Below, piece by piece: positions 10,169-28,793 of a stretch of 32,000 nt of DNA. This DNA is from Rhodobacter capsulatus SB 1003 (GTDB lineage: Bacteria > Pseudomonadota > Alphaproteobacteria > Rhodobacterales > Rhodobacteraceae). The stretch covers positions 960,001 through 992,000 of the forward strand of contig NC_014034.1 in NCBI RefSeq assembly GCF_000021865.1, written 5' to 3'. Under the pieces are notes generated by a model. The model saw nothing but the letters and a program-made list of their open reading frames with translations, searched no databases and was not told where the DNA came from. Both the position numbers and the translations under genes were made by a program. Position 1 is the stretch's first letter; every line of letters starts with the position of its first letter.

Positions 10169-10984
10169 ATGAAGATCTTGTTTCTTGGCGATGTGATGGG
10201 GCGCGCGGGACGTGCGGGGGTGGCGGAACGGCTGCCGAAGCTGCGCGCGGACTGGGGGCTCGATTTCGTCGTGGTGAACGGCGAAAACGCCTCGGGGGGC
10301 ATGGGGCTGACCGGCGAGCATGCGAAACTGCTGCTTGCCGCGGGGGCCGATGTGGTGACGCTGGGCGATCATGCCTTCGACCAGAAGGACATGCTGCGCT
10401 TCATCGAAACCGAGCCGCGGGTGATCCGGCCGCTGAATTACGCGAAAGAGGCGCCCGGCAAGGGCGCGCGGCTGTTCGAGGACCGCCGCGGCCGCAAGGT
10501 TCTGGTCGCGCAGGTGCTGGGCCAGGTCTTCATGAAGCGCCCCTTCGACGATCCGTTCTCGGCGATCGACACCGCCTTGCGCACGCATCCGCTGGGCGGG
10601 CTGGCGCAGGCGATTCTGGTCGACGTGCATTGCGAGGCGACCTCGGAAAAGATGGCGATGGGGCAGTATTGCGACGGCCGCGCCAGCCTTGTCGTCGGCA
10701 CGCATACCCATGTGCCCACCGCCGATGCGGTGATCCTCAAGGGCGGCACCGCCTATCTGTCCGACGCGGGGATGTGCGGCGATTACGACAGCATCATCGG
10801 CATGGAAAAGGCCGAGCCGATGCGCCGGTTCCTGACCGGGATGACGCGCGACCGTTTCACCCCGGCCGAGGGGCCGGTGACGCTTTCGGGCGTCTATGTC
10901 GAGACCGACGACCGCACGGGCAAGGCCACGCGCATTGCCCCGGTGCGGCTGGGCGGGCGGTTGCCCGAGGCGCTGCCGGTCTGA
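10169..10984 (+). CDS. YmdB-like metallophosphoesterase (2',3'-cyclic nucleotide phosphodiesterase family)
   Basis: ATG at 10169 follows AAGGAAG. MKILFLGDVMGRAGR, VVVNGENASGGMG, and DVHCEATSEK..GTHTHVPTAD are YmdB/TIGR00282-type motifs. Confidence 0.85.
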   Translation: MKILFLGDVMGRAGRAGVAERLPKLRADWGLDFVVVNGENASGGMGLTGEHAKLLLAAGADVVTLGDHAFDQKDMLRFIETEPRVIRPLNYAKEAPGKGARLFEDRRGRKVLVAQVLGQVFMKRPFDDPFSAIDTALRTHPLGGLAQAILVDVHCEATSEKMAMGQYCDGRASLVVGTHTHVPTADAVILKGGTAYLSDAGMCGDYDSIIGMEKAEPMRRFLTGMTRDRFTPAEGPVTLSGVYVETDDRTGKATRIAPVRLGGRLPEALPV

Positions 10985-11115
10985 GCCTTGGCCGCCATAT
11001 GTCCGCAAAAACAGCATTTTCCCGCCGACAGCCGAAGATGGCACGGAAAGCGGCGATGAAAGCTTGCCCGCATGGCTTGGGCGGCTAGTATCGCGGCGAA
11101 GCAGAGGGGCCTGAG

Positions 11116-12903
11116 ATGATCGACCTTGGACTGGGCGCCGCGGCGCAGGCATGGCTGTCCATCGCCATCGTGCTGGGCATGTTCGTTCTGTTCGTGCGCG
11201 AAAAGGATCCGCCCGAAGTCATCGCCATCGGCGGCGCCGCCCTGATGCTGGTGCTGGGCCTTGTGCCCTACAAGGAGGCGGTGGGGGCGCTCTCGAATTC
11301 GGCGCCCTGGACGATCGCCTTCATGTTCCTGATCATGGGGGCGCTGGTGCGCACCGGCGCGCTGGACCGCGCCACCCGTGCCGTCGAAAGCCAGATCGAC
11401 GAACGCCCGGCCACCACCACGGCGCTGCTCTTCGCCATCGTCATGGGCGCCTCGGCCTTCATGAACAACACCCCCGTCGTGGCGGTGATGATCCCGATCT
11501 TCATGCAGGCGGCGCGCAAGCTGAACGTGCCGCCCTCGCGGCTTTTGATGCCGCTGTCGTATTTCACCATCATGGGGGGGATGATCACGCTGATCGGCAC
11601 CTCGACCAACATCCTGGTTGACGGGGTGGTGCGCAAGGACGGGATGGCGCCGTTCTCGATCTTCGAGATCGCGCCCGTCGGGCTGGCGATCTGTCTGGCG
11701 GGCTCGCTCTTCATGGCGCTGTTTTCGCGCCGTCTGGTGCCCGACCGGGTCTCGATGGCGGCGACGCTGGGGGGCGGGCGGCCGAAGATGAAATATTTCA
11801 CCGAGGTGGCGATCCCCGAGGAATCGAACCTGATCGGCAAGGGCGTGCTGGAGATCGACATCTTCAAGCGCACCGGGGTCCGGGTGATCGACGTTCTGCG
11901 CGGCGATGCCAGCTTGCGGCGTGATCTGACGGCGGCGGTGCTGGAGGCGGGCGACCGGGTGGTGCTGCGCACCGAGGTCTCGGAGCTTCTGGGCATGCAG
12001 GCCAACAAGGATGTGCGGGTGGTGGACAAGCTGTCCTCGGTCGCCACCGAGACGGTCGAGGTGCTGATCTCGCCCGGCTGCCGGATGATCGGGCGGTCTT
12101 TGGGCGATTTGCGGCTGCGGCGGCGCTATGGCGTCTATGTGCTGGCGGCGCATCGGCGCAACCAGAACATCGGCCGCAAGCTTGACGATCTGGTGGTGGT
12201 CGTGGGTGATACGCTGCTGCTCGAGGGCGCGCCCGAGGATATCGCCCGGCTGGCGCAGGACATGGATCTGGTCGATGTCTCCCGCCCCACCGCGCGGGCG
12301 TTCCGGCGCGGCAAGATGCCGATCGCGGTTCTGGCCCTGCTTGCCGTGGTCGGGCTTTCGGCGCTGGATGTGGCGCCGATCATGGAACTGGCGATGGTGG
12401 CGGTGGCGGTGATCCTGCTGACCCGCTGCATCGATGCCGACGAGGCCTTTTCCTATGTCGATGGCCGGCTTCTGGCGATGATCTTCGCCATGCTGGTGGT
12501 GGGCGAGGGGCTGGACGCCTCGGGGGCGGTTGCGCTCATCGTCGATGCGGTGGCGCCGCTGATGCAGGATCTGCCGCCGATCGCGGCGCTGGCGGCGGTC
12601 TATTTCCTTGGCCTTGCGATGACGGAACTGCTGTCGAACAATGCGGTGGCGGTGATCTTCACGCCGATCGCGATCCAGCTGGCGCATACGCTGGGTCTGG
12701 ACCCGCGCCCCTTTGCCGTGGCGGTGATGTTCTCGGCCTCGGTCGCCTTTGCCACGCCGATCGGCTATCAGACCCACATGATGGTCTATGGGCCGGGCGG
12801 CTACAAATTCTCGGATTTCCTGCGGCTTGGCATTCCGCTCGATATCCTGACCGGCATCGTCGCGGTGCTGGTGATCCCGCTTGTCTGGCCGCTTGTCCCC
12901 TGA
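11116..12903 (+). CDS. SLC13/DASS-type anion permease with two central TrkA-C (RCK C-terminal) domains
   Basis: 595 aa. Hydrophobic N- and C-terminal transporter halves (NNTPVVAVMIPI, LSNNAVAVIFTPIA) flank two TrkA-C-like soluble repeats (..GDRVVLRTEVSELL.., ..GDTLLLEGAPEDIARL..). Confidence 0.85.
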   Translation: MIDLGLGAAAQAWLSIAIVLGMFVLFVREKDPPEVIAIGGAALMLVLGLVPYKEAVGALSNSAPWTIAFMFLIMGALVRTGALDRATRAVESQIDERPATTTALLFAIVMGASAFMNNTPVVAVMIPIFMQAARKLNVPPSRLLMPLSYFTIMGGMITLIGTSTNILVDGVVRKDGMAPFSIFEIAPVGLAICLAGSLFMALFSRRLVPDRVSMAATLGGGRPKMKYFTEVAIPEESNLIGKGVLEIDIFKRTGVRVIDVLRGDASLRRDLTAAVLEAGDRVVLRTEVSELLGMQANKDVRVVDKLSSVATETVEVLISPGCRMIGRSLGDLRLRRRYGVYVLAAHRRNQNIGRKLDDLVVVVGDTLLLEGAPEDIARLAQDMDLVDVSRPTARAFRRGKMPIAVLALLAVVGLSALDVAPIMELAMVAVAVILLTRCIDADEAFSYVDGRLLAMIFAMLVVGEGLDASGAVALIVDAVAPLMQDLPPIAALAAVYFLGLAMTELLSNNAVAVIFTPIAIQLAHTLGLDPRPFAVAVMFSASVAFATPIGYQTHMMVYGPGGYKFSDFLRLGIPLDILTGIVAVLVIPLVWPLVP

Positions 12904-12910
12904 GGTTTTC

Positions 12911-13294
12911 ATGCGTTTCGCCGTCCTGCTGCCCACCCTCCTGCTGCCCGCCGTCCTTGCGCTTTCGGCCTGTTCGCTGCCGCCCGCGCCCGCGCCCAAC
13001 CCGGGGCGCATCGATCTGCTTTCCGACCGGCTGACGGTGCATTTCACCGATGGCAGCCGCTGCAGCGCCGATATCGCCGCCGCGCCCACGGGGGCGCTTG
13101 CGGGCTGCGCGGTGCCGATGACCTATGCGGTCGAGATCCGCCGCAAGATCCATGTTCCGGTCGCCGACGGGCTGATCGAGCCCTATGCAAAGGTCCGGCT
13201 GACCCGGCAATCCGACGGGCGCGTCTTCGACTGGGTCACCCCCGAGGGCGGCGCGTGGCACCGGCCGGTGAATTACGGCCATCAGCCCGGCTGA
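12911..13294 (+). CDS. Hypothetical lipoprotein
   Basis: ATG at 12911 gives MRFAVLLPTLLLPAVLALSAC (lipobox LSAC). I recognise no family. Confidence 0.55.
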   Translation: MRFAVLLPTLLLPAVLALSACSLPPAPAPNPGRIDLLSDRLTVHFTDGSRCSADIAAAPTGALAGCAVPMTYAVEIRRKIHVPVADGLIEPYAKVRLTRQSDGRVFDWVTPEGGAWHRPVNYGHQPG

Positions 13295-14139: not shown

Positions 14140-14170
14140 AAAAGGCGCCCCCCGGGGCGCCTTTTGTTTT
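14140..14170 (+). terminator. Rho-independent terminator after yebC
   Basis: Stem AAAAGGCGCC / GGCGCCTTTT with a CCCCGG loop, followed by TTTTGTTTT. Confidence 0.85.
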
Positions 14171-14200
14171 CGCCACGCTGTCGCGTGGCGACCCGCCGTC

Positions 14201-14378: not shown

Positions 14379-15377
14379 TCAGCCGAACAGGATCAGGTTC
14401 GAGCGCGCGATCACCCAGAGGGTCATCAGCGCATAGGCCGCAAACCCCGCCAGCGCCCAGAGTGTCAGACGGCGCATCACCGCGGGCAGGGGGCTGCGCA
14501 GGCTGCTGCGCGCGGCAAAGGGGCTCACCGCGCCAAGCCCGAGCGCCAGCGCCGTCGCCCCGAAGAGCGGCAGGTAGAACGCATAGCCGACATGGCCGTA
14601 TTCCGGCTTCAGGATGCAGAAGGGGCAGTGATGGTTCGGGTTTTCATAGACATAAAGCGAGATCGTCGAGACCATCGCCACCAGCGCCGCGCCGAAATAG
14701 CCGGCCCCCGCCAGGGCAAAGAGCCCGTGCCCGCGCCCGCTGCGCAGCGCGTGCAGGCCGGTTGCCAGCACCAGCCCCGCCGCGATCGCCAGGGCCCATA
14801 ATGCGGTTGCCGGATCGACCGCCGCCATCTCGTCCGAAATCCCCGCATTGGCCGGGGTGAAGAGCTTCGAGCAGCAGGACGTGATCACATCGGTGCGCAG
14901 ATTGAGGAAATAGGCCAACTGCAGCCCCCCCGTCACCAGAACCAGCGGCGCGATCGCCAGCACGGCGGCATATTTCACCCGCGTCAGCGGGTAATCGCGC
15001 CCCAACCGGTCGACATGATCCAGCACCAGCCAGACCGCCGCCGCGAAAAAGCTGGCGATCTGCCCGGTAAGCGCCGGAAAGCCGTAGCCGTTCACGTTCA
15101 GCGTGCCCACCGCGCACATCGCCCCCACGAACAGCGCCGCCATCCGGTCGGCGTTGAAGACGAACAGGAACAGCGCCGCCGCCTCGGCCGCCATCACCAG
15201 CGCGAAAAGCGTCGAGACCAGTTCGGTGCGCCGCTCCAGCAGCAATTGCCCACGCGCGCCGCTGCTCGGATCCCAGCGCCGCAGCACGGAAATTCCGAAG
15301 CCCGCCGACCAGAGCGCCACCAGCGCGGCCAGCGCCGAGACCAGCAGCAGCGTCAGGATCGGCGTGTGAAAGATCAT
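14379..15377 (-). CDS. Polytopic membrane protein of unknown family with Cys/His motifs (SCC, HHCPFC)
   Basis: 332 aa with about 8 hydrophobic segments. The start overlaps the upstream ABC ATPase stop (ATGA at 15374-15377). Motifs read from the sequence: ITSCCSKLF and ENPNHHCPFCILKPEYGH. Confidence 0.7.
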   Translation of the reverse strand: MIFHTPILTLLLVSALAALVALWSAGFGISVLRRWDPSSGARGQLLLERRTELVSTLFALVMAAEAAALFLFVFNADRMAALFVGAMCAVGTLNVNGYGFPALTGQIASFFAAAVWLVLDHVDRLGRDYPLTRVKYAAVLAIAPLVLVTGGLQLAYFLNLRTDVITSCCSKLFTPANAGISDEMAAVDPATALWALAIAAGLVLATGLHALRSGRGHGLFALAGAGYFGAALVAMVSTISLYVYENPNHHCPFCILKPEYGHVGYAFYLPLFGATALALGLGAVSPFAARSSLRSPLPAVMRRLTLWALAGFAAYALMTLWVIARSNLILFG

Positions 15378-16051
15378 GACCGCACCTGCAGGACCGCGCC
15401 GTCCCGCATCTCGACCACCGCCGTCACCGGCGCGGCCGAAATGATGCGCGGATCATGGCTGGTCAGGATCACCGTTTTCCCCTCGGCCCGCAGCCCGGCG
15501 ACGATGTCAAGAAAGCGCAGCGCCAGCGCGGTATCGAGATTGGCCGTCGGCTCGTCGGCGATCAGCACCGGCGCGTCATTCACCAGCGCCCGGGCAATCG
15601 CCGCGCGCTGCGTCTCGCCGCCCGACAGCACCTCGACCGGCATCCGCGCCTTCCCCGCCAGGCCAAGCGCCGCGAGCCGCGCCAGCGCCCGCGCTTCAAC
15701 CACCGCGCGATCCTCGCCCAGCGGCGCCGCGGGCAGCATCACGTTTTCCAGCACCGACAGGCCCCGGATCAGGTTGAAGCGCTGAAAGACAAAGCCGAAC
15801 CGGCGCCGCCGCAGATCGGTCAGGAAGCGCTCGGGCAGGGAGGAAATCACCTCGCCCGCCAGCGTGATCCGCCCCGTCGTCGGCCGCGCCATGCAGCCCA
15901 CCAGGCTGAGAAGCGTCGTCTTGCCCGAGCCTGAAGGCCCCATCACCACCGTCACCCCCGGCGCGATCGCCAGATCGATGTCGCGCAGCGCGGTGACTTC
16001 GTTCGGGCGGCCTTCGTTGTAGGTCTTTGAAACGCCGTGCAAGGTGATCAT
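15374..16051 (-). CDS. ABC transporter ATP-binding protein, MacB/LolD-like
   Basis: Start MITLHGVSKTY at 16051. Walker A GPSGSGKTT, signature LSGGETQR, Walker B VLIADEPT, H-loop TSHD. ATGA overlap with the permease stop (16048-16051). Confidence 0.9.
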   Translation of the reverse strand: MITLHGVSKTYNEGRPNEVTALRDIDLAIAPGVTVVMGPSGSGKTTLLSLVGCMARPTTGRITLAGEVISSLPERFLTDLRRRRFGFVFQRFNLIRGLSVLENVMLPAAPLGEDRAVVEARALARLAALGLAGKARMPVEVLSGGETQRAAIARALVNDAPVLIADEPTANLDTALALRFLDIVAGLRAEGKTVILTSHDPRIISAAPVTAVVEMRDGAVLQVRS

Positions 16052-17187
16052 CGCATCACCGCATCCGGGTCGGCCGCCGCGCTGCGCCAGACCGGAACCA
16101 CGGTCGCGGCGGCATAGGGCAGGGTGGTCAGAAGAAACAAGGTCAGCAGCTGCGCCGTGTCGATCGCGGGGCTGAGCCGGAACTCGGGATAGATCACCGC
16201 CCAGCCCTGCAGCAGCGGCGCGAAAAGCGCCGCCCCCGCCCAGAACACATGCGCATAGGCCAGCACAGTGCCGAGCACAAACGCCCCGCCCGAGATCAGC
16301 CCCCCCTCCCAAAGCTTCATCGCGATCACGTCGCGCGTGTCCCAGCCGATCGCCTTCAGAATGCCGATTTCGCGCGCCTCCTCGGCGGAAAGCCCGCTGG
16401 CCTTGTCGGCGGCAAAGATCGCGAAAGCCAGCATCGCGACGAAAGCCAGCGCCACCATCACCCCCTCGCGCCAGTCGAAAAGCTTCTGATAGGTGCGGGC
16501 GATGTCGCCCCGGGTGACAAAACGGGCCTCGGGCAGCCGGGCCGTGGCTTTTTCGACCACGGTCGACAGCTCGCGCGGGTTGCGCACCGTCACCGCCAGA
16601 TCGGTGAACTGCCCCGCAGGCACGTTGAAAAAGCTGCGGAAATCGGCCTCGTTCATCAAGATCAGATCGGCGCTGACCAGCGCCAGTTCGGTGTCCAGCG
16701 TGCGGGCGACGTCGAAGCGCACCAGATCGCCCTCGTGGCGCGACAGGAACAGCGGCGTGCCCTGCCATTTGAAATCGCGCAGCCGCGGCACCGCTTCGCC
16801 CAGGATCACCTGCCCCGGCGGCGGGATCAGCGCGGCGGTGCCCGGCACCATCACCGTGTAATTCGCCCCGTTGATCCGGTCGTAAAAATAGCCCCAAAGC
16901 CGCCCCTCGACCCCGGCGACGCCGCGGATTGCGGCAAGCTGCGGCACCGCCTCGGCGCCGATCATCGTCTGACGGCCAAGGCTGAGGCTTTGCACGATCA
17001 GATCGGGGGCGCTGGCCAGTGTCGCCTCGGCCTCGCGACGCAGAGAAGCGGCCAGGAACATCGCCGAGGCCAGCAGGAACACGACCGCGGCAAAGACCGC
17101 GACGAGGGCGAGCGTCTTGACCCGCCGCCGCGCCAGCGCCGCGACGGTGAAATCCAGAAGCGCGCGATGCCGGTTCAGCGCGCTCAT
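16048..17187 (-). CDS. FtsX-like (MacB/LolCE-type) ABC permease
   Basis: Start MSALNRH at 17187. One N-terminal TM is followed by a periplasmic domain of about 200 aa, then 3 TMs with REIGILKAIGW, which is typical of the FtsX family. Confidence 0.85.
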   Translation of the reverse strand: MSALNRHRALLDFTVAALARRRVKTLALVAVFAAVVFLLASAMFLAASLRREAEATLASAPDLIVQSLSLGRQTMIGAEAVPQLAAIRGVAGVEGRLWGYFYDRINGANYTVMVPGTAALIPPPGQVILGEAVPRLRDFKWQGTPLFLSRHEGDLVRFDVARTLDTELALVSADLILMNEADFRSFFNVPAGQFTDLAVTVRNPRELSTVVEKATARLPEARFVTRGDIARTYQKLFDWREGVMVALAFVAMLAFAIFAADKASGLSAEEAREIGILKAIGWDTRDVIAMKLWEGGLISGGAFVLGTVLAYAHVFWAGAALFAPLLQGWAVIYPEFRLSPAIDTAQLLTLFLLTTLPYAAATVVPVWRSAAADPDAVMR

Positions 17188-17513
17188 CGCAGATCCCCGG
17201 CCGAAAAGGCAAGCGCCGTCGGCCCGAAATGCGTCGGCGGCGCAATCAGGCTTCCCGAGGGAAAGTGATCGAAAGACAAGGGGTTGTCCTGAAAGGCGGT
17301 GGCCAGATCGGCCAGCGACGGGTGGCGGGTGTAGCGCGCCTCGGTGAACAGCGCGAGATCGCTCAGGCCAAGGTCCCGCACCAGATGCGCGGCGGCCTGC
17401 AGACGCGCGGCCTCGCGCGGGGCGGTCAGAACGGCATGCGCCGCCTCGGCCCCCGCCAGCGCGAAAGCCAGGCCAAAGGCCGCCAGCACCGGGGTTGCGG
17501 GACGCAGGCTCAT
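17184..17513 (-). CDS. Small secreted protein, no recognisable family
   Basis: 109 aa. Signal peptide MSLRPATPVLAAFGLAFALAGAEA. ATGA overlaps on both sides (17510-17513 and 17184-17187) support translation within the operon. Confidence 0.6.
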   Translation of the reverse strand: MSLRPATPVLAAFGLAFALAGAEAAHAVLTAPREAARLQAAAHLVRDLGLSDLALFTEARYTRHPSLADLATAFQDNPLSFDHFPSGSLIAPPTHFGPTALAFSAGDLR

Positions 17514-18031
17514 TCGAACCGGCCCTCGTCCAGCTTCGCGGGCAGGTCCGCGGGGATGTCGGCAAAGCGCAGCAGGCGCTTGCCCGCGTGATCGCGCATG
17601 AAATCGGCCGCCTCGGCCTCGCTGGCCAGGGGCACGAACTCATGCCCCATCGGCCCCAGAACATCCGAGCCGACCGCGTAAAGCGCCGTCTCGGCCGCGA
17701 TCGGGCGCAGGCCGTAATAGTCGGTCACCCCCATCGCGGTGATCTGATCGCGACGGCGCCCGGCGGCGTATTTCGGCACCTCGGCCACGAATTTGAAGAA
17801 GTCCTTCGGGCCGTCGAAATGAAAGGCTGCGCCATCGGCAAAGACCACCGTCGCGATCCAGTCGGGATAGCGCGCGACGAACATGCCGCAGACCGGACAG
17901 GTGTCGCGCGGCCCGGGTTTGGGCAGATCGAGGCGCGTCGCATCCGCGCGGGCGGCCTGCGGCAGGCAAAGGGCAAGCGCCGAGACGCCTGCCAGCAGGC
18001 CAAGCGCGGTGCGGCGGGAAAGGTTGCACAT
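17510..18031 (-). CDS. NosL-like periplasmic protein (CPVCGM motif) with an RR-containing signal peptide
   Basis: I prefer the ATG at 18031 (GGAG 6 nt upstream), giving MCNLSRRTALGLLAGVSALA... CPVCGMFVARYPDW...FHFDGPKDFFKF resembles the NosL/YHS-type metal-binding fold. Starts at 18043 or 18082 are possible. Confidence 0.7.
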   Translation of the reverse strand: MCNLSRRTALGLLAGVSALALCLPQAARADATRLDLPKPGPRDTCPVCGMFVARYPDWIATVVFADGAAFHFDGPKDFFKFVAEVPKYAAGRRRDQITAMGVTDYYGLRPIAAETALYAVGSDVLGPMGHEFVPLASEAEAADFMRDHAGKRLLRFADIPADLPAKLDEGRFE

Positions 18032-18086
18032 GGTCAACTCCATCCCCGGCCGTGCCGGGTTTGCACGGCCGGAATGTTGCAAAAGG

Positions 18087-18734
18087 TCAATGCGAGCCGG
18101 GCATCTTCAGGCCCATGTCATGCCGTTTCTCGCCCCGGCGCTTGCGGATCATCGCGGTGTCCTTGGCCATTTCGACATAGGCGGCCATCAGCGCCGTGTC
18201 GAAATCGGCAAGGCTTGCATCGGCGCTGCCCGCGGCGGCGGCCTCGGCCTTGGCGCGGTCGGCAAAGGCCAGTTTCGACACCGCCGACATCGTGCCCGGT
18301 TTCGCGGGATCGATCACATAGGTCATCGCGGCCGTATCGGCGAGCGGCTTCGTCTCGCCCTCGGCCCCGGCATCGCCCGCATAGATCGCCTTCGGCCCGG
18401 CGTCCATGTTGAGCGCCAGCGAAATCGCCGCGCAATGGATCGAACAGGTGCCGTCCACGGTGTCGTTTTCATAAACGATCAGATGGCGCGAGGCCGAGAA
18501 CATCGCCCGCATCATGCCGCAATAGGGGCAGCGCGGATATTTGCCCAGATCGTCGGTCACCGGGTCGGGATCGACCTTGAGAAACCGGGTCAGCCCGTTT
18601 TCATCGGTCCATTGCATCGGGCTGACCGGCTTTTCGGCGGGGGACATCGCCATTTCGGCGCGGGCGGGCAGGGCGGCCAGCGGCACAAGCGCGGTGGCAG
18701 AGGCGGTGGCGGCAAGAAAATCACGACGTTTCAT
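18087..18734 (-). CDS. Tat-signal periplasmic protein with a NosL/TRASH-like Cys4 motif and Met/His-rich termini
   Basis: ATG at 18734 follows GGAGA. Twin-arginine signal MKRRDFLAATASATAL..ARA. Motif CPYCGM-x22-CSIHC (C-x2-C-x24-C-x3-C). The mature N-terminus EMAMSPAEKPVSPM and C-terminus HDMGLKMPGSH are rich in Met and His. Confidence 0.75.
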   Translation of the reverse strand: MKRRDFLAATASATALVPLAALPARAEMAMSPAEKPVSPMQWTDENGLTRFLKVDPDPVTDDLGKYPRCPYCGMMRAMFSASRHLIVYENDTVDGTCSIHCAAISLALNMDAGPKAIYAGDAGAEGETKPLADTAAMTYVIDPAKPGTMSAVSKLAFADRAKAEAAAAGSADASLADFDTALMAAYVEMAKDTAMIRKRRGEKRHDMGLKMPGSH

Positions 18735-18829
18735 CGCTGTCTCCAGAACGGAACATTGGCAGGGATCAGGGCACGGCGGGGACCCCGCGGGGACGGGGAG
18801 GGCGGGACGCTGCCCCCCTCGCGCCCCCG

Positions 18830-19261
18830 TCACAGGGTCGCAACCACCGGCGGTGCGCGGATCAGGCCGCTGCGCGGCAAAGGCGCGATGAAGGTGAAGG
18901 GGATCAGGGCCGCGGGATCAGGCGCGGTCAAAAGATGCAGCTGCGGCGGCGGCAGATCCGGCAGCGCGGGCATGGCAAAGGCGCAGACCGCGGCGCTGGT
19001 GCAGATCGCGCAGCCCGCATGGCCGCCGTCCGTGTCCAGGACCCGGCCCGAGACGGGATCGTAAAGCGCCCCCCCCTCGCCGGTGCAAAGCTGCAAGAAC
19101 CCCGCCCGCGCGCCCGGGCCAAGGCCGCCCAGATCCTGCAGCGCCGAGGCCGAGAGATGTTCGGCGAAGAACAGGCTTTGCAGCGCGAGGGCCAGCACCG
19201 CCAGCCACCGGGCGAAAACGCCGGCGCGGAAGGACAGCTGGGGGCGGGCAGGGCGGATCAT
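18830..19261 (-). CDS. DUF2946-like small membrane-anchored/secreted protein (CxxC)
   Basis: Start MIRPARPQLSF at 19261. It has an N-terminal hydrophobic segment (WLAVLALALQSLFF), then LCTGEGG and HAGCAICTSAAVC followed by LPDLPPP. This matches the architecture I recall for DUF2946. The family call is from memory. Confidence 0.55.
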   Translation of the reverse strand: MIRPARPQLSFRAGVFARWLAVLALALQSLFFAEHLSASALQDLGGLGPGARAGFLQLCTGEGGALYDPVSGRVLDTDGGHAGCAICTSAAVCAFAMPALPDLPPPQLHLLTAPDPAALIPFTFIAPLPRSGLIRAPPVVATL

Positions 19262-19380
19262 CACGGCTCGCGGTCGCGGGGTTGGCACAGCATTGCGGCA
19301 GGCCGGGGGGAAAGCAATGCCTTCCCGCCGGTGTTTCGGGCTGCCGTGCTCTCTGGCTATCGGGCAGGCGCACCGCGCGC

Positions 19381-19396
19381 CTTGACCGAGGTCAAG
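19381..19396. promoter_or_regulatory. Perfect 7-2-7 inverted repeat CTTGACC-GA-GGTCAAG in the divergent promoter region
   Basis: Read directly. It lies between the DUF2946-like start (19261, minus) and the EamA start (19467, plus), and contains TTGACC on both strands. Confidence 0.35.
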
Positions 19397-19466
19397 TGTC
19401 GCAGGCGGGCTGTATCCCGCACAATCGGCCGCTTGCGCCCCCGCGCGGGGCAGGGCAGCAAGGGGC

Positions 19467-20354
19467 ATGACGTCGATCTCCGAGAAGAACCAACCCGTCG
19501 AGGGCGTGCTGTGGATGCTGGCCACGGGCATCGCCTTCGTCTTCGTCAACGGCATCGTGCGTTATCTGGGCACGGCGTTGCCCGCCGCCGAATCCGCCTT
19601 CATCCGCTTCGCCTGGGGGCTGCTGTTTCTGGCGCCCTCGTTGCTGCCCTTGTTGCGTTCGGGGATTTCGCCCGGCCTTTTCAAGCTTTTCGCGCTGCGC
19701 GGCGCGCTGCATACCATCGCCGTGATGCTGTGGTTCTACGCGATGGCGCGGATCACCATCTCCGAGGTGACCGCGATCGGCTATCTGAACCCGATCATCG
19801 TCACCCTGGGCGCGGGTCTGTTCTTCGGCGAGGGCTTCCGCCCGGCGCGGATGGCGGCGATTGGCCTGGCGATGCTTGGCGCGCTGGTGGTGCTGCGCCC
19901 GGGGCTGCGCGAGCTGTCGCCCGGCCATCTCGCGCAGCTTGGCGCGGCCTTCGGGTTCGGGCTGTCCTATCTGGTGATGAAGCGGCTGACGCAGCTTGCC
20001 CCGGCCTCGACCGTGGTGGCGGTGATGGCGCTGTCGGTGACGATCGGCCTTGCGCCCTTTGCGCTGGCGGTCTGGCAGCCGGTCAGCCTTTCGCAGCTGC
20101 TCTGGCTGGGGGCGGTCGCCGTCTTTGCGACGGCGGGGCATTACTGCATGACCCGCGCCTTTGCCTGCGCGCCGATGACGGTGACGCAGCCGGTGACCTT
20201 TCTGCAGCTGGTCTGGGCGACAGCTCTCGGCTGGTCGGTCTTTGGCGAGGCGGTCGACCCCTGGGTGATCCTGGGCGGGGCCATCATCCTGGCGGCAGTC
20301 GTGTTCCTGACCTGGCGCGAGTCGCGTGGGCAGCCGTCGCAAGGGCGTATTTGA
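19467..20354 (+). CDS. EamA/DMT superfamily transporter
   Basis: 295 aa, 10 predicted TMs, two EamA-like repeats. SD AAGGGG lies upstream. Confidence 0.8.
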   Translation: MTSISEKNQPVEGVLWMLATGIAFVFVNGIVRYLGTALPAAESAFIRFAWGLLFLAPSLLPLLRSGISPGLFKLFALRGALHTIAVMLWFYAMARITISEVTAIGYLNPIIVTLGAGLFFGEGFRPARMAAIGLAMLGALVVLRPGLRELSPGHLAQLGAAFGFGLSYLVMKRLTQLAPASTVVAVMALSVTIGLAPFALAVWQPVSLSQLLWLGAVAVFATAGHYCMTRAFACAPMTVTQPVTFLQLVWATALGWSVFGEAVDPWVILGGAIILAAVVFLTWRESRGQPSQGRI

Positions 20355-20417
20355 GCCAAGAAGAAACCCGAAGCCAAAGGACTCCGGGTTTCCGTTTTTT
20401 CTTGGGAAAAATACGCC
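20344..20417. repeat. Palindromic copy of the dispersed repeat filling the EamA/proV convergent gap; likely bidirectional terminator
   Basis: Left arm GGCGTATTTGAGCCAAGAAGAAACCCG, right arm CGGGTTTCCGTTTTTTCTTGGGAAAAATACGCC. Paired blocks are GGCGTATTT/AAATACGCC, CCAAGAA/TTCTTGG and AAACCCG/CGGGTTT. The EamA stop codon (20352-20354) lies inside the left arm, and the proV stop is 3 nt beyond the right arm. Confidence 0.65.
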
Positions 20418-20420
20418 TCT

Positions 20421-21482
20421 TTACCCCTTGGCGGCGGTGCCGCGCGGGTCGATCAGCCGGGCGATCACGCCTTCGCGGGTGATCCGCCGCCCGTCGGTCA
20501 GCGCCACGGCGGGGACGGTCTTCAAAAGCTCCATCACCTTGATCACCGGGGTTTCGGGCGCAATCGGCGTGCCCTCGGCCGCGCCCGGTTCGGCCATGTC
20601 CTCGGCCGTCAGCACGCCAAGCGGGTTCATGTGGGCGACGAATTCGGCGACGTACTCATCGACCGGATTGGCGATGATTTCCCGCGCCGTGCCCATCTGC
20701 ACCAGCCGCCCGCCTTCCATCAGTGCGATGCGGTTGCCAAGCTTGAAGGCCTCGTCCAGATCGTGGGACACGAAGACGATGGTGCGTTTCAGCGTCGATT
20801 GCAGCTCCAGAAGTTCATCCTGCAGCTTCGCCCGAATGAGCGGATCGAGCGCCGAGAAGGGCTCGTCCATCAGAAGGATCGGCGCTTCGGTGGCAAAGGC
20901 GCGGGCCAGCCCCACGCGCTGCTGCATGCCGCCCGAAAGCTCGCCCACCTTGCGCTCGGCCCAGTCGGTCAGGTTCACCAGTTTCAGCTGCGCATCGACG
21001 CGGTCGCGCCGTTCCGCCTTGCCCATGCCGCTCAGTTCCAGCCCCAGCCCGACGTTTTCGCGCACGGTCCGCCAGGGCAGCAGGCCGAATTGCTGAAACA
21101 CCATCGCGACGCGGGTCTGCCGGATCCGGCGCAGGGTCTGCGGATCGGCATGGGTGACATCGACAAGCCCGTTGCCGTCGCAGACCTCGACCTTGCCGCG
21201 GCAGACCGGGTTGAGCCCGTTCACCGCGCGCAGAAGCGTCGATTTGCCCGAGCCCGAAAGGCCCATCAGCACCAGGATTTCGCCCTCGGCCACCGAGAGC
21301 GAGCAGTCATGCACCCCCAGAACCTGACCCGTGCGAGCCTGGATCTCGGCGCGCGACATGCCTTGGTCCATCAGCGGCAGGGCGCGGTCCGGGTGATCGC
21401 CAAAGACGATCGAGACATTGTCGAACCGCACCGCGACGCCCGCGGTCAGCTTCGGATCGGTGATCATGGTCGCATGTCTCAT
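20421..21482 (-). CDS. proV: Quaternary-amine (glycine betaine/choline) ABC transporter ATP-binding protein with C-terminal CBS domains
   Basis: Walker A GLSGSGKST, signature LSGGMQQRVGLAR, Walker B LLMDEPFSALD. ATGA overlap with the permease gene. The ChoV-like assignment is inferred from the neighbouring bet genes. Confidence 0.9.
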   Translation of the reverse strand: MRHATMITDPKLTAGVAVRFDNVSIVFGDHPDRALPLMDQGMSRAEIQARTGQVLGVHDCSLSVAEGEILVLMGLSGSGKSTLLRAVNGLNPVCRGKVEVCDGNGLVDVTHADPQTLRRIRQTRVAMVFQQFGLLPWRTVRENVGLGLELSGMGKAERRDRVDAQLKLVNLTDWAERKVGELSGGMQQRVGLARAFATEAPILLMDEPFSALDPLIRAKLQDELLELQSTLKRTIVFVSHDLDEAFKLGNRIALMEGGRLVQMGTAREIIANPVDEYVAEFVAHMNPLGVLTAEDMAEPGAAEGTPIAPETPVIKVMELLKTVPAVALTDGRRITREGVIARLIDPRGTAAKG

Positions 21483-22510
21483 TTCGATCCCCCGAAGCGC
21501 ATCATCCGGTCAAGCACGATGGCGACGACCACGATGATCATCCCCGATTCAAAGCCAAGCGCGGTGTTGACCGAGTTCAGCGCCCGCACCACCGGCACAC
21601 CGAGCCCGTTCGCGCCCACCAGCGCCGCGATCACCACCATGGAGAGCGAGAGCATGATCGTCTGGTTCAGCCCCGCCATGATCTGCGGCAGCGCATAGGG
21701 CAGTTCGACCTTCCACAGCACCTGCCGCGGCGTGGCGCCAAAGGCGCGGGCGGCTTCCAGAAGCGGCTGCGGCGTGGTGGACACCCCCAGATGCGTCAGC
21801 CGGATCGGCGCGGGCAGCACGAAAATCACCGTCGCGATCAGCCCCGGCACCATGCCGATGCCGAAAAACACGATCGCCGGGATCAGATAGACGAAGGTCG
21901 GCAGCGTCTGCATCAGGTCGAGGATCGGCTGCATCGCCAGATAAAGCCGGGGCCGGTGCGCGGCGGCGATGCCGATCGGCACGCCCAGCGACATGCAGAC
22001 GACACAGGCCGAGATCACAAGCGTCAGGCTTTCCGTCGTCGGTTTCCAGTAGCCCTGGTTGAAGACGTAAAGCAGGCCCAGAAGCACGGTCAGCAGGATC
22101 GACACCCGCCGCTGCAGGAACCACGAGATGCCAAGGAAAAAGCCCGTCATGATGAAGGGCTGATATTCCGGCGGGTAAAGCGGCGTATATTCTGCCGCGC
22201 CGGTGATCCAGGAAATGTCGAGCGGCGTCGCAAAGATCGCCATGATCCCGTCGATCAGCGTTTCGAAGATCGCGGCCAGATGATCGAAGACGATCGAGAA
22301 ACTGTCGCGCATCCATTCGAAGACGTGCTTGGCCCAGGGGCCGACGGGAATTTTCCATTTGCCGGTGAAAAGATCGGTGCCGCTGTGGCCGGTGATCAGC
22401 CCGGAGCCGATCAGCAGGGCCGCCAGTTTTTCGAGGACCGTCTTGAGCAGGATGGCGCCGAAAATCGACGCGGCGATGGTGCCGATCAGGCGCATCGTTT
22501 GCTGTAGCAT
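21479..22510 (-). CDS. proW: Quaternary-amine ABC transporter permease
   Basis: 343 aa. BPD-transport inner-membrane component with an EAA-like loop (EAARAFGATPRQVLWKVELPYALP). Confidence 0.9.
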   Translation of the reverse strand: MLQQTMRLIGTIAASIFGAILLKTVLEKLAALLIGSGLITGHSGTDLFTGKWKIPVGPWAKHVFEWMRDSFSIVFDHLAAIFETLIDGIMAIFATPLDISWITGAAEYTPLYPPEYQPFIMTGFFLGISWFLQRRVSILLTVLLGLLYVFNQGYWKPTTESLTLVISACVVCMSLGVPIGIAAAHRPRLYLAMQPILDLMQTLPTFVYLIPAIVFFGIGMVPGLIATVIFVLPAPIRLTHLGVSTTPQPLLEAARAFGATPRQVLWKVELPYALPQIMAGLNQTIMLSLSMVVIAALVGANGLGVPVVRALNSVNTALGFESGMIIVVVAIVLDRMMRFGGSK

Positions 22511-22541
22511 GTCGCTTGCCTTGCGTGGTTCGGAAGACCGA

Positions 22542-22559
22542 CAGGCGGGGGCCCGCCTG
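22542..22559 (-). other. Intercistronic hairpin between the substrate-binding-protein and permease genes
   Basis: Stem CAGGCGG / CCGCCTG with loop GGGC in the 75-nt proX-proW gap. Hairpins of this kind commonly give differential SBP/permease expression; that function is inferred here. Confidence 0.4.
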
Positions 22560-22585
22560 CCTGGATCGTCAGGTCAGCGCAAGGC

Positions 22586-23512
22586 TTATTTCAGCGCCGC
22601 GGTCACCGCCGCAAGGCCGTCGCCGCCGTCCTTGGTGGTCACGCCGGCAAGCCAGGGGGCCAGAACTTCCGGGTGCGCGGCCAGCCAGTCCTTGGCGGCG
22701 GTCGGCGGGTCGATGCCCTCGTCAAGGATCTTGCCCATGATCTCGTTTTCCATCGCCAGGCTGAATTCGAGATTGGAGAGCAGCTTGCCGGTGTTCGGGC
22801 ATTCCGCGACATAACCCTTGCGGACATTGGTGCGCACCTCGGCGCCGCCGAAATTCGGGCCGAAGACCTCATCGCCGCCGGTCAGGTAGCTCATCTTGAA
22901 ATTCGCGTTCATCGGATGCGGTTCCCAGCCGAGGAACACCACCGGGGTATTGTCCTTTTCGCCCTTGGCGACGGCGGCGAGCATCCCCTGTTCCGAGCTT
23001 TCGACAACCTCGAAGCCGGTCAGGTCGAATTTGCCCGCGGTGATCATGTCGAGCACCAGACGGTTGCCGTCATTGCCCGGCTCGATCCCGTAGATCTTGC
23101 CCTCGAGCGCGTCCTTGTTCTTCGCGATATCGGCGAAATCCTTGATGCCAAGTGCGGCGCCCGCGGCATTGGTGGCCAGCGTGTATTTCGCGCCCACCAG
23201 GTTGGTGCGCAAAGTTTCGACCGTGCCGTCATCGCGATAGGGCGCCAGATCGGCCTCCATCGAGGGCATCCAGTTGCCCAGGAACACGTCCACATCCCCC
23301 GAGGAGAGCGCCGTATAGGTCACCGGCACCGACAGAAGCTTGATGTCGGTTTCATACCCCAGCGCCTGCAGCACCGTCGTCGTCACCGCGGTCGTCGCGG
23401 TGATGTCGGTCCAGCCCACATCCGAAAAGATCACCTTGTTGCAATCGGCCGCGGCGGGAAGGGCAAGCGAAACTGTCGCAGCCCCGGCAAGAAGGAAGGA
23501 ACGAAGCGTCAT
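22586..23512 (-). CDS. proX: Quaternary-amine (choline/glycine betaine) ABC transporter substrate-binding protein
   Basis: ATG at 23512 follows GGGAGA. Signal peptide MTLRSFLLAGAATVSLALPAAA. FSDVGWTDITATTAVT...FLGNWMPS is ProX/ChoX-like. Confidence 0.85.
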   Translation of the reverse strand: MTLRSFLLAGAATVSLALPAAADCNKVIFSDVGWTDITATTAVTTTVLQALGYETDIKLLSVPVTYTALSSGDVDVFLGNWMPSMEADLAPYRDDGTVETLRTNLVGAKYTLATNAAGAALGIKDFADIAKNKDALEGKIYGIEPGNDGNRLVLDMITAGKFDLTGFEVVESSEQGMLAAVAKGEKDNTPVVFLGWEPHPMNANFKMSYLTGGDEVFGPNFGGAEVRTNVRKGYVAECPNTGKLLSNLEFSLAMENEIMGKILDEGIDPPTAAKDWLAAHPEVLAPWLAGVTTKDGGDGLAAVTAALK

Positions 23513-23558
23513 CAGGGTCTCCCGTTGGTTGCCCGGTTTACGGTCAGGCTTTTTGTTG

Positions 23559-23572
23559 ATTGACGAGTCAAT
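23559..23572. promoter_or_regulatory. Candidate BetI operator: palindrome ATTGAC-GA-GTCAAT
   Basis: Perfect 6-2-6 inverted repeat (extended form TTGATTGACGAGTCAATAA) in the AT-richer 116-bp divergent region between proX and betI. It resembles the TetR-type BetI boxes I recall from proteobacteria. Confidence 0.55.
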
Positions 23573-23628
23573 AAACTTGCCTGTAGCTCCTAAAAGCAAG
23601 TTCTTTTTTGAGCGGAGTCGCAAAAGAC

Positions 23629-28718: not shown

Positions 28719-28793
28719 CACGGGTCAAGGTGGCGCAAGCGCTCCGGGTCTAGGCTTGAGTCGTAAGAAATGAAGAGCGCAAAGGAAGAGGCC

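Follow-up and report, generated by a model that had tools for sequence, protein, structure and literature searches.

Several described systems pair an ABC machine with periplasmic partners in a way that bears on the locus reported here. NosFY drives NosD between NosL and NosZ, LolCDE passes its cargo to LolA, and FetABCDEF, of the FetMP iron system, combines an 8-TM Cys-rich protein with an ABC transporter, thioredoxins and a YHS domain. In the 32,000-nucleotide stretch of the Rhodobacter capsulatus SB1003 chromosome analysed here (the window, to which all positions refer), seven minus-strand genes, rcc00891 to rcc00885 (g1–g7), set two NosL-type proteins beside a type VII ABC module and a Cys-rich membrane protein. 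We give about even chances to the reading in which the products of this operon make up a periplasmic machine that handles Cu(I) and is induced at low oxygen, resembling NosDFYL but working on a type VII ABC scaffold. A sequence-only reading knew of no characterised system of this composition, and our literature search likewise found no orthologous one; nowhere in the literature searched is the function of the g1–g7 system described, and its architecture appears only as one row of a supplementary table. The extensive literature on cbb3 biogenesis in R. capsulatus does not mention these genes. The features of the locus, in the direction of transcription, are as follows.

19382..19395, no strand assigned: FNR/FnrL box TTGACCGAGGTCAA, 134 nt 5' of the g1 ATG, in the intergenic region common to the divergent EamA gene (rcc00892)
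18830..19261, minus strand: g1 (rcc00891, ADE84656), 143-aa exported DUF2946/CutF-like protein; CxxC as HAGCAIC, C-terminal tail IRAPPVVATL
18788..18829, minus strand: GC-rich RNA hairpin with loop CAGCGUCC, beginning 1 nt past the g1 stop codon
18087..18734, minus strand: g2 (rcc00890), 215-aa NosL-like protein with a Tat signal; CPYCGM...CSIHC and a distal Met
17510..18031, minus strand: g3 (rcc00889), 173-aa soluble NosL-family protein; CPVCGM and GPMGHE
17184..17513, minus strand: g4 (rcc00888), 109-aa exported or membrane-anchored protein; motifs LFTEARYTRH and HFPSG
16048..17187, minus strand: g5 (rcc00887), 379-aa FtsX-type (type VII ABC) permease with 4 TM helices
15374..16051, minus strand: g6 (rcc00886), 225-aa FtsE/MacB/LolD-type ABC ATPase
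14379..15377, minus strand: g7 (rcc00885, D5AQ63), 332-aa 8-TM protein of a new family
14140..14172, no strand assigned: terminator-like hairpin AAAAGGCGCCCCCCGGGGCGCCTTTTGTTTT, bidirectional, in the gap that separates g7 from the convergent yebC (rcc00884), from direct reading of the sequence

The seven co-directional open reading frames lie where the sequence-only reading had placed them, and their lengths agree with independent NCBI gene calls in R. capsulatus genomes. The four ATGA overlaps, at 17510-17513, 17184-17187, 16048-16051 and 15374-15377 on the minus strand (junctions g3-g4, g4-g5, g5-g6 and g6-g7), are likewise borne out by the sequence; g1 and g2 are separated by 95 nt and g2 and g3 by 55 nt. 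By tblastn, dozens of species have homologues of each gene at 31–95% identity and in matching order; these are real genes rather than high-GC shadow ORFs. The ATGA coupling is real but frequent in high-GC operons, and is thus unremarkable by itself. The hairpin at 14140..14172 was not among the output of a consensus scan.

Profile searches confirm two NosL proteins, an FtsX permease and an FtsE/MacB/LolD-type ATPase, and the AlphaFold model agrees for g5; like the synteny and motif conservation described below, these results favour the sequence-only reading. This permease scores 30.1 bits against the FtsX profile (gathering score 25.5), with a partial lolCE match, and carries a periplasmic domain of ∼180 aa between TM1 and TM2. 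Its model (pLDDT 80.2) finds LolE as the best Foldseek match (6e-15), together with LolC, MacB, HrtB, BceB, YbbP and FtsX, and also matches isolated LolC/LolE periplasmic domains; as modelled, g5 has the fold of a type VII (LolCDE/MacB/FtsX) mechanotransducing ABC permease. The g6 protein matches ABC_tran at 94.9 bits, and its top NCBIfam scores (FtsE 178.8, MacB 170.7, LolD 166.7) each fall under the respective equivalog cut-off; judged by these matches, it is the ATPase type that fits the g5 permease class. No family match to g4 was found in Pfam or NCBIfam, yet its gene lies immediately 5' of the FtsX gene in 75 of 81 loci, and its homologues keep EARYTR (67/75) and HFPxG (74/75). Homologues of g4 and g5 have no conserved Cys, and Met and His are sparse in their periplasmic parts, so that the ABC module is unlikely to ligate copper.

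The membrane protein g7 also found no family match in Pfam or NCBIfam. Its AlphaFold model (pLDDT 80.8) has 8 TM helices, and a PDB fold search with this model returned no match (best E 0.09, TM-score about 0.25). Three long loops bear the invariant C88, S167-C168-C169 and H249-H250-C251-P-F-C254, and these would lie on the periplasmic side, given the topology, the invariance of the Cys and His residues and the positive-inside rule. HHCxxC and SCC are kept in all 81 homologues and GAMC in 80. The family comprises 1125 clusters at 50% identity; among the 150 representatives listed there is no fusion, each being ∼330 aa long or a shorter fragment. A conserved intramembrane ladder of Met, His or Cys was not found in g7, its invariant residues outside the loop motifs being mainly aromatic, Gly or Pro.

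The thiolate motifs reported for g1, g2, g3 and g7 (SCC and HHCPFC in the last) are all present. Both g2 and g3 are annotated by NCBI as 'nitrous oxide reductase accessory protein NosL', and against the NosL profile (gathering score 24) they score 33.3 and 104.6 bits, respectively. The Tat signal of g2 contains KRRDFL, and both ends of the protein are Met/His-rich; its homologues keep the RR motif (53/61), CxxCxM (60/61) and CxxCxM followed by CxxxC (60/61). Its residues align with the ligands C59/C62/M64/C88/D92/M145 of Shewanella NosL, D92 being changed to Cys (PMC8457098). In the original 'NosL/TRASH' label the TRASH half is loose, the NosL Zn/Cu site being a better reading of the g2 cysteines. 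Homologues of g3 have CxxCxM (63/63) and G[PA]MG (61/63), and a lipobox in none of 63. A search of solved NosL chains gave weak similarity to g3 (E about 2e-3) and no match to g2. The two proteins keep the NosL copper ligands, namely the bridging Cys, the Met and the distal Met, and neither carries a lipobox.

Relatives of g7 are found at 586 or more places among species-representative genomes, and the synteny extends across Alpha-, Beta- and Gammaproteobacteria, well beyond close relatives. The g4-g5-g6-g7 core is essentially invariant (75–81 of 81 loci), the g2-g3 pair accompanies it in 45–46 of 56 full-flank loci, and the metal-ligand motifs, whose conservation had been proposed as a check, are retained in 95–100% of homologues. 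Clusters in Beta- and Gammaproteobacteria and in Magnetospirillum add genes for SCO1, PCuAC (127 bits), DUF2946 (29.9 bits), a TlpA-like thioredoxin, DsbD_2, a Cu(I)-type P1B-ATPase and a stand-alone FixI/CcoI-type metal-binding ORF (PF12156, 30.2 bits). All these neighbours, including SCO1/SenC (130 bits) and the AhpC-TSA/Redoxin thioredoxin, lie within the same co-directional cluster, and the E1-E2 ATPase has an HMA domain and, as read from its sequence, the motifs CPC, YN(x)4P and M(x)2SS. At least one copper-specific neighbour gene is present in 40 of the 56 full-flank loci. Copper had been a guess; the SCO1, PCuAC, P1B-ATPase and TlpA-like/DsbD_2 genes co-located in other lineages make it a stronger candidate. 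A client cuproenzyme gene was found in or near the cluster at none of 81 loci.

A perfect FNR box that precedes g1 is occupied by FnrL in vivo, and transcript levels of g2 and g3 depend on this regulator. The sequence TTGAYN4RTCAA occurs twice in the window against 0.10 expected, and the box at 19382..19395 corresponds to FnrL ChIP-seq peak 19, enriched 16.4-fold (PMC4634722 Table S1). In FnrL RNA-seq, g2 changes 2.6-fold and g3 1.72-fold; the g1 transcript changes −1.19-fold, which is not significant, and g4–g7 are not among the matches listed in the differential-expression tables. Enrichment of FNR-type boxes upstream of the cluster extends to other taxa: among 73 loci, 15 have TTGA-N6-TCAA no farther than 300 nt 5' of the leading gene, giving 16 boxes where 0.8 would be expected.

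The DUF2946 label given to g1 is shared by its UniRef name, although the profile match is weak (19.3 bits, under the gathering score of 23.7). The protein has the features used in published filters for CutF-like proteins (PMC9973294), and all 19 homologues retain its CxxC as well as a PP among the 15 C-terminal residues; it is probably a copper-sensing leader or chaperone. Among 15 Rhodobacterales loci, at least 10 have a hairpin that starts no more than a few nucleotides from the g1 stop, with G(C/U)CCC in the loop or at its edge and stems that differ in sequence between loci. Folding of the whole g1-g2 region was no stronger than shuffles (z = −0.73), and an automatic alignment gave no consensus structure.

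Other roles can be proposed for such a set of genes. One is anaerobic copper detoxification, in which toxic Cu(I), building up while the O2-dependent CutO cannot work, would be captured from the periplasm or outer leaflet and sequestered or expelled, the type VII ABC extracting copper as HrtBA does haem or as MacB expels periplasmic substrates. FnrL-dependent induction, which means production at low oxygen, agrees with this, as do the likeness of g1 to the leader found in cutFOG, an operon for copper resistance, the usual outward direction of type VII cargo from membrane or periplasm, and the Cu-exporting P1B-ATPases co-located in many taxa. However, genes for membrane-fusion or outer-membrane factors are not recurrent neighbours, leaving no evident exit route; the clusters lack CusF/CusCBA and multicopper oxidase, and the partners (SCO1, PCuAC, the FixI-type domain, the TlpA-like thioredoxin) are chaperones of biogenesis rather than resistance genes. 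We consider detoxification unlikely. High-affinity uptake would instead have the NosL-like proteins, as periplasmic binding proteins, give Cu(I) to g7, which would conduct it into the cytoplasm with ABC help. CcoI-type ATPases would then re-export the copper to SCO1/PCuAC, in line with the known 'route copper through the cytoplasm' logic by which cbb3 is assembled; according to a review, copper delivery needs a cytosolic copper pool. The eight helices, predicted periplasm-facing thiolates and lack of a known fold in g7 would suit an importer, which the extended clusters would then pair with an exporter and chaperones. We know of no type VII ABC transporter that imports, a class that works through mechanotransmission and offers substrates no path across the membrane, and the missing intramembrane ligand ladder also counts against a conducting g7, making uptake improbable.

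It is no more probable that the cluster is a thiol-redox or soft-metal module without copper specificity, either FetABCDEF-like or serving Zn, Hg, Ag, Cd, Fe-S or persulfide species. Its composition, including the thioredoxin genes of extended clusters, does recall FetABCDEF; a structural relationship links NosL to MerB, and the Shewanella protein binds Zn as well; the vicinal Cys pairs recall MerT and MerC; and the four-Cys site of g2 with Tat export is compatible with cofactor insertion in the cytoplasm. The DUF2318 and YHS profiles do not match g7, however, Ftr1/P19, mer and other metal-specific genes are not recurrent whereas four copper-specific families are, and the NosL ligands kept are those for copper, beyond those for zinc alone. 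A dedicated paralogous system for N2O-reductase maturation, replacing or supplementing nosDFYL, might be expected from the NosL annotations, the presence of NosZ in R. capsulatus and the many denitrifiers among cluster-bearing taxa. We regard it as very improbable: the locus was rightly judged not to be nosDFYL, having no NosD, NosY or NosZ, and the canonical nosRZDFYLX, complete with its own nosL, sits on the SB1003 plasmid. Linkage of nosZ, nosD or nosY to the cluster was seen in 0 of 81 loci, and members of Gallionellaceae and Sideroxydans, taxa not generally known to have nosZ, also carry the cluster.

In the preferred reading of a Cu(I)-handling machine, g5, probably as a homodimer, would assemble with g4, g6 and g7 into one membrane complex, and the Cys, Cys-Cys and His-His-Cys-x-x-Cys of the g7 periplasmic loops would make up a Cu(I) site of thiolate/imidazole type. 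By hydrolysing ATP, g6 would power movements of the g5 periplasmic domain through which Cu(I) is handed between this site and the soluble chaperones of NosL type, much as in the NosL-to-NosDFY-to-NosZ precedent and in transfer from LolCDE to LolA. As a CutF-like exported leader, g1 would link the copper status of the periplasm to translation of the downstream genes. Such a relay may serve to supply copper to envelope cuproenzymes, for which cbb3 oxidase or N2O reductase are the obvious candidates, when oxygen is low and copper would be present as poorly available Cu(I).

The sequence-only reading had proposed that seven minus-strand genes form an operon for a candidate copper system, in which NosL/TRASH-like proteins are paired with a MacB/FtsX-type ABC machine. 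All seven open reading frames are found where it placed them, ATGA overlaps are present at each of the four junctions that it named, and every Cys, Met and His motif that it quoted is present in the products. Proteins ADE84650 to ADE84656 of strain SB1003 correspond to rcc00885 to rcc00891, a numbering fixed through published tables, and we refer to these genes as g7 (rcc00885) up to g1 (rcc00891). They encode a DUF2946/CutF-like protein (g1), two NosL proteins (g2 and g3), a family-less protein (g4), an FtsX permease (g5), an ATPase (g6), and a protein with eight transmembrane (TM) helices (g7). The 332-aa g7 product is identical, with the same neighbours, in complete R. capsulatus genomes.

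Features of the operon, in window coordinates.
14140-14172, bidirectional terminator-like hairpin between g7 and the convergent yebC
14379-15377, minus strand, g7
18788-18829, minus strand, hairpin at the g1 stop codon
19382-19395, FNR box TTGACCGAGGTCAA, 134 nt upstream of g1

A scan of the window for sigma-70 promoters gave no match, the expected outcome for R. capsulatus. Upstream of the operon, the region 19467-25661 contains an EamA transporter, a glycine-betaine/proline ABC system (proX1, proW1 and an ATPase), a TetR regulator, an aldehyde dehydrogenase and the choline dehydrogenase betA; these genes make up a locus for osmoprotectants, apparently unconnected with the copper cluster. Long alternative-frame or antisense reading frames of up to 731 aa overlap the real genes (10894-13089, 15374-17245, 16048-17664, 17883-19064, and others). 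These are shadow ORFs typical of DNA with 65–70% GC, and antisense and alternative-frame 'families' of this kind even group across species in all-versus-all BLAST.

Both g2 and g3 match the NosL profile (PF05573; gathering score 24), g3 with 104.6 bits and g2 with 33.3 bits. Their similarity to solved NosL chains is remote and marginal, and a sequence search of solved structures with g2 returned chance hits only. The Shewanella NosL crystal structure has Zn bound by C59, C62, C88 and D92, and Cu(I) by C62, M64 and M145; the latter are the three strictly conserved residues, and the Zn ligands vary between orthologues (PMC8457098). The g3 protein contains C45-x-x-C48-x-M50 plus M128 within GPMGHE, and so keeps all of the NosL copper ligands and the first zinc Cys, the only zinc Cys present; at the remaining Zn-ligand stretch it has H71, D73 and D77. 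In g2, C69-x-x-C72-x-M74 is accompanied by C97, C101 and a conserved distal Met, C101 replacing the Asp such that all of the Zn positions are Cys (CxxC-x24-CxxxC in 60 of 61 homologues). Of 61 g2 homologues, 60 have the CxxCxM motif and 60 have it with CxxxC after it; conservation of the distal Met is 90% or more. Homologues of g3 have CxxCxM in 63/63 cases and G[PA]MG in 61/63, and a lipobox-like motif is present in none of the 63. The g2 protein carries a Tat signal, with a twin-arginine motif in 53 of 61 homologues, and the g3 N-terminus in Rhodobacterales is an SRRxxL-type signal.

The earlier description of g2 as TRASH-like did not survive this analysis. Its cysteines are spaced C-x2-C-x24-C-x3-C versus C-x2-C-x19-22-C-x3-C in the TRASH signature, and neither the TRASH nor the YHS Pfam profile matches g2 at E <= 0.1. 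We have dropped that assignment; the cysteines align with the NosL Zn/Cu site, and are better read as such a site with a putative all-Cys structural metal position.

The g5 permease matches the FtsX Pfam profile with 30.1 bits and lolCE partially. Its AlphaFold model (pLDDT 80.2) has a long TM1 helix (residues 22-58), a mixed alpha/beta periplasmic domain (residues ∼63-236) and three TM helices. Foldseek returned LolE (6e-15), then LolC, MacB, HrtB, BceB, YbbP, YtrF and FtsX, and isolated LolC/LolE periplasmic domains match too, with TM-scores of 0.5-0.6; the predicted fold thus places g5 firmly in the type VII ABC class. A sequence search of the PDB yielded no close relative of g5 (best phmmer E 0.51), and for this protein it is the fold comparison that is informative, with the sequence search of solved structures being uninformative. 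The best NCBIfam matches of g6 are FtsE, MacB and LolD (178.8, 170.7 and 166.7 bits); these are below all of the equivalog cut-offs, and g6 is therefore of a type shared with FtsE, MacB and LolD but an orthologue of none. The gene list of the locus contains no membrane-fusion (HlyD) or outer-membrane-factor partner, and neither do the recurrent neighbour families. The g4 protein matches no Pfam or NCBIfam family, and has EARYTR in 67 of 75 homologues and HFPxG in 74 of 75. Conserved Cys residues are absent from the exported parts of both g5 and g4, and these two look like mechanical parts rather than metal ligands.

No Pfam or NCBIfam family matches g7, and its proposal as a DsbB, VKOR, CcdA or CopD relative is unsupported by Pfam. 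An AlphaFold model (pLDDT 80.8) has eight TM helices, and a PDB fold search with it gave only spurious GPCR-like hits (best E 0.09, TM-score about 0.25). HHCxxC and SCC are conserved in all 81 homologues and GAMC in 80/81. The short loops 1-2, 3-4, 5-6 and 7-8 are Arg/Lys-rich, so by the positive-inside rule the long loops carrying C88, S-C-C and H-H-C-P-F-C would face the periplasm together. This would put five thiols and two imidazoles on one periplasmic face, the three long Cys/His loops themselves being low-confidence regions of the model. A profile search of 1.84 billion representatives identified 1125 family clusters, and among the 150 of these 1125 representatives that were listed no fusion partners were seen, all being about 330 aa or shorter fragments.

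Scanning one genome per species by pattern and tblastn confirmed at least 586 relatives of g7. Of 81 homologous loci examined, 80 have g6 next to g7, 77 contain g5 and 75 contain g4. Among the 56 loci with full flanks, 45-46 have g2 and g3 as a pair in the co-directional cluster with these genes; in Rhodobacterales and Hyphomicrobiales the pair is encoded upstream of g4, and in Betaproteobacteria, Gammaproteobacteria and Magnetospirillum it comes downstream of g7. Metal-type motifs hardly vary among homologues of g1, g2, g3 and g7, and the cluster reaches Alpha-, Beta- and Gammaproteobacteria. The copper reading had been made to depend on conservation of its Cys/Met/His residues and on synteny outside close relatives; given that the residues are conserved and the synteny is wide, it is refuted on neither count. 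Among the hosts are purple and magnetotactic bacteria, oxidisers of iron and sulfur, and denitrifiers such as Accumulibacter.

Rhodocyclaceae, Gallionellaceae, Sulfuricella, Sedimenticola, Magnetospirillum and others have a longer version of the cluster, typically ordered [SCO1/SenC] - small ORF - g4 - g5 - g6 - g7 - TlpA-like thioredoxin - [FixI/CcoI-type metal-binding ORF - Met-rich small membrane protein - 198-aa protein - P1B-ATPase] - DsbD_2 - g2 - g3. Pfam matches on these clusters include SCO1-SenC (130 bits), AhpC-TSA/Redoxin, an E1-E2 ATPase with an HMA domain, and DsbD_2, and the small ORF preceding the ATPase gives 30.2 bits with PF12156, the profile for the N-terminal metal-binding domain of FixI/CcoI-type ATPases. 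Magnetospirillum loci have in addition, upstream of g4, genes for PCuAC (127 bits) and DUF2946 (29.9 bits) proteins. The P1B-ATPase sequence has the CPC, YN(x)4P and M(x)2SS motifs that mark Cu(I)/Ag(I) pumps in the P1B classification. At least one copper-linked neighbour gene is present at 40 of the 56 full-flank loci; no cuproenzyme, NosD/NosY, membrane-fusion or outer-membrane-factor gene is recurrent in the 81.

Three small conserved ORFs lie between the thioredoxin and the P1B-ATPase in 26-27 loci (for example L048 11500-12665, and about 11900-12530 in L035 and L037). They encode a stand-alone FixI/CcoI-type metal-binding domain of ∼56 aa (CxxC...CCxxC, PF12156), a 122-aa protein with a Met-rich N-terminus (MMTEEMMKKMPHMM...), and a 198-aa protein of no family with a C-terminal TM segment. 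Directly 5' of g4 in Betaproteobacteria and Magnetospirillum there is a further conserved ORF of ∼65 aa (...LLLGAGFALASLILLPAVAQRVGLGSSLTIALRGALMRAANRV), which belongs to no family and is found in 28 loci (L025 7652-7891, L030 7462-7743, L034, L035, and others); it is missing from the R. capsulatus operon.

FnrL, the low-oxygen regulator of R. capsulatus, binds upstream of g1, and g2 and g3 depend on it. The pattern TTGAYN4RTCAA matches twice in the window versus 0.10 expected, and the exact g1-upstream motif is peak 19 in the FnrL ChIP-seq data of Kumka and Bauer, with 16.4-fold enrichment; this is among the stronger peaks in their table, in which ccoN has 25.7-fold (PMC4634722). In the corresponding RNA-seq data, rcc00890 (g2) and rcc00889 (g3) are FnrL-dependent, by 2.6-fold (q about 0) and 1.72-fold (q = 0.045) respectively, and rcc00891 (g1) is unchanged (PMC4634722). 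Neither gene flanking the 19262-19466 interval, g1 or the divergent EamA gene (rcc00892), shows an FnrL-dependent change despite the strong peak, whereas g2 and g3 respond. The discrepancy may reflect mRNA that is processed, or differs in stability, around the g1-g2 hairpin, or else the use of a second start site. Of 73 loci, 15 have a TTGA-N6-TCAA box in the 300 nt preceding the first gene of the cluster (16 boxes versus 0.8 expected); these 15 include closely related species and three loci outside Rhodobacterales (L059, L069 and L071). From this enrichment, low-oxygen control seems to be ancestral for part of the family at least.

Another perfect FNR box (TTGACACGGGTCAA, 28715-28728) is located ∼45 nt upstream of an 87-aa ORF at 28770-29033 on the plus strand (MKSAKEEAMSNTPHTLSEEF...). 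The published FnrL tables assign this motif to rcc00900/rcc00901, and rcc00901 is activated 6.87-fold by FnrL and repressed by RedB.

The g1 product scores 19.3 bits against DUF2946 (PF11162), below the gathering score of 23.7, and bears the DUF2946 label in UniRef; its positional counterpart in Magnetospirillum sp. UT-4 scores 29.9 bits. Published filters for CutF-like proteins are a length below 150 aa, an N-terminal signal peptide, a Cys/His motif, PP among the final 15 residues, and a gene that follows on the same strand after a short gap (PMC9973294). By these filters g1 is CutF-like: it has 143 aa, CxxC (19/19), a tail PP (19/19) within an invariant [IA]R[AG]PP, a signal peptide as judged by eye, and a 95-nt gap to g2 (72-172 nt in relatives). 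CutF is a co-translational periplasmic copper sensor, and a stem-loop controls translation of the downstream Tat-exported CutO; in sensors of this type the stem-loop masks the ribosome-binding site of the next gene until stalling at the PP motif opens it. The hairpin at 18788-18829 begins within a few nt of the g1 stop, with G(C/U)CCC located in its loop or at the loop edge. When sequences were folded separately, such a hairpin was present in at least 10 of 15 Rhodobacterales loci (L004-L018), with differing stem sequences. As a single sequence, the g1-g2 spacer does not fold more strongly than shuffles (z = -0.73), and automatic alignment of the spacers gave no consensus base pairs because their lengths differ. 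The g2 Shine-Dalgarno sequence lies ∼35 nt beyond the stop-codon hairpin, in a separate weak hairpin, and is not obviously sequestered.

By analogy with the cutF-cutO stem-loop, the g1-stop hairpin may be a regulatory RNA element, and a role for g1 as a cis-acting translational copper sensor is plausible; g1 may instead act in trans, as a chaperone. Like CutF of the R. capsulatus cutFOG operon and the wider CutF-like/DUF2946 group (CruR, CopL), g1 is of similar size with an N-terminal hydrophobic signal, a central Cys motif and a tail PP, and both CutF and g1 precede the gene for a Tat-signal protein, with a hairpin right at the stop. They differ in that the CutF motif is CxxxC whereas that of g1 is CxxC, and the gene downstream of CutF encodes a multicopper oxidase whereas those downstream of g1 encode chaperones and an ABC machine.

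The closest functional parallel is NosDFYL, which assembles the copper centre of N2O reductase (PDB 7osf-7osj, 7znq). Both systems have a NosL-family Cu(I) chaperone and an ATP-driven ABC complex, which in NosDFYL relays copper via a periplasmic module to the client enzyme, and the copper ligands, CxxCxM and a distal Met, are kept in g2 and g3. The operon nevertheless lies outside NosDFYL, as the sequence-only reading had held: no NosD, NosF, NosY or NosZ is present in the locus gene and Pfam lists or recurrent in the 81 loci, there being neither a NosD beta-helix protein nor a linked NosZ. NosY is of the ABC-2 type whereas the operon ABC is of type VII, with the FtsX/LolC fold. Canonical NosL is a lipoprotein, whereas the operon encodes two soluble paralogues, one of them Tat-exported with Cys for the Zn-ligand Asp, and it adds two new families, the family-less g4 and g7. 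A dedicated NosZ maturation system is rejected, since the canonical nosRZDFYLX cluster of SB1003 is elsewhere, on the plasmid (rcp00070-76).

The type VII ABC systems (LolCDE, MacAB-TolC, FtsEX-EnvC, HrtBA, YbbAP-TesA and BceAB) have the g5 fold, with four TM helices and a periplasmic domain between TM1 and TM2, and an ATPase of the FtsE/MacB/LolD type like g6. They work with periplasmic partner proteins and the operon likewise encodes such proteins, although the known partners are LolA, MacA, EnvC and TesA and those of the operon are NosL-type metallochaperones, a 109-aa protein and the 8-TM Cys/His protein. Literature searches brought up no type VII ABC with a metal-ion cargo. The described cbb3 copper delivery pathway of R. 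capsulatus (CcoA, CopZ, CcoI, SenC and PccA) has FnrL control in common with the operon, ccoN also being a ChIP-seq peak, and the extended clusters share a CPC-type P1B-ATPase, the FixI/CcoI metal-binding module, SCO1/SenC and PCuAC with cbb3/fixGHIS-type clusters. None of those genes is in the R. capsulatus operon, however, and the pathway as described is without NosL, FtsX or g7.

The best-supported reading is that the operon encodes an FnrL-induced periplasmic Cu(I) relay which, as in NosDFYL, would have a chaperone working with a mechanotransducing ABC system. Its components would form a complex with Cu(I) as the probable cargo and a periplasmic or membrane cuproenzyme as the putative client; Cu(I) would pass from the g7 membrane site to the soluble NosL-type chaperones. 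We slightly favour this direction of transfer by analogy with LolCDE and HrtBA, but the reverse, from the chaperones to the g7 membrane site, may apply, and the operon may alternatively be a detoxification system or a copper uptake system. It may also have a thiol-redox support role like that of FetABCDEF, the accessory proteins of the P19/Ftr1 iron uptake system FetMP-FetABCDEF of Campylobacter jejuni and E. coli, which comprise the 8-TM FetA, the FetBCD ABC system and the FetEF thioredoxins; FetB and FetC are probably of FtsX type. The likeness extends to a periplasmic metal-binding protein, an 8-TM protein with periplasmic Cys motifs, an ABC system, thioredoxins, and a CxxC/YHS-type module in both. 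However, FetA has DUF2318 and YHS domains and g7 matches neither, Ftr1/P19 is missing from the locus, the operon in the window is itself without a thioredoxin, and the neighbours indicate copper, not iron.

The overall interpretation of the operon as a real copper-linked system is upheld, and no characterised orthologous system was found in the literature. Full-text searches brought up no publication pairing NosL with an FtsX/MacB/LolC-type transporter or discussing rcc00885-00891; the sole trace found of the architecture is one row in the supplementary neighbourhood table of the CutF paper. Searching the supplements of the aerobic/anaerobic transcriptome and RedB papers for the rcc00885-00891 tags gave no match, and main-text searches gave none either. 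We tentatively raise the possibility, as yet a doubtful one, of a distinct, unrecognised class of envelope metallation machine, in which a type VII LolCDE-like mechanotransducer, together with the g7 8-TM thiolate protein and the small g4 subunit, would spend ATP on pulling Cu(I) out of a site embedded in the membrane and handing it to soluble NosL-type chaperones, or would run in the opposite direction. In that case it would be the first type VII ABC system with a metal-ion cargo, and would serve cuproenzymes in hundreds of proteobacterial species as a general copper-distribution hub under oxygen control.

How copper is routed to periplasmic and membrane cuproenzymes without poisoning the cell is only partly understood, particularly at low oxygen, where Cu(I) dominates. 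To our knowledge, NosDFYL is the only described ABC-powered copper relay, and it serves a single enzyme. If the relay reading is true, the principle of a NosL chaperone working with a mechanotransducing ABC would have been built independently on a LolCDE/MacB-type scaffold and be widespread. It would also widen the cargo range of type VII ABC systems to include a metal ion, and g4 and g7 would be two new protein families for copper biology. Genetic work on cbb3 oxidase and copper homeostasis has R. capsulatus SB1003 as its main model; since the operon resides in this strain with FnrL ChIP-seq and RNA-seq support in hand, the hypothesis is testable with existing strains and assays.
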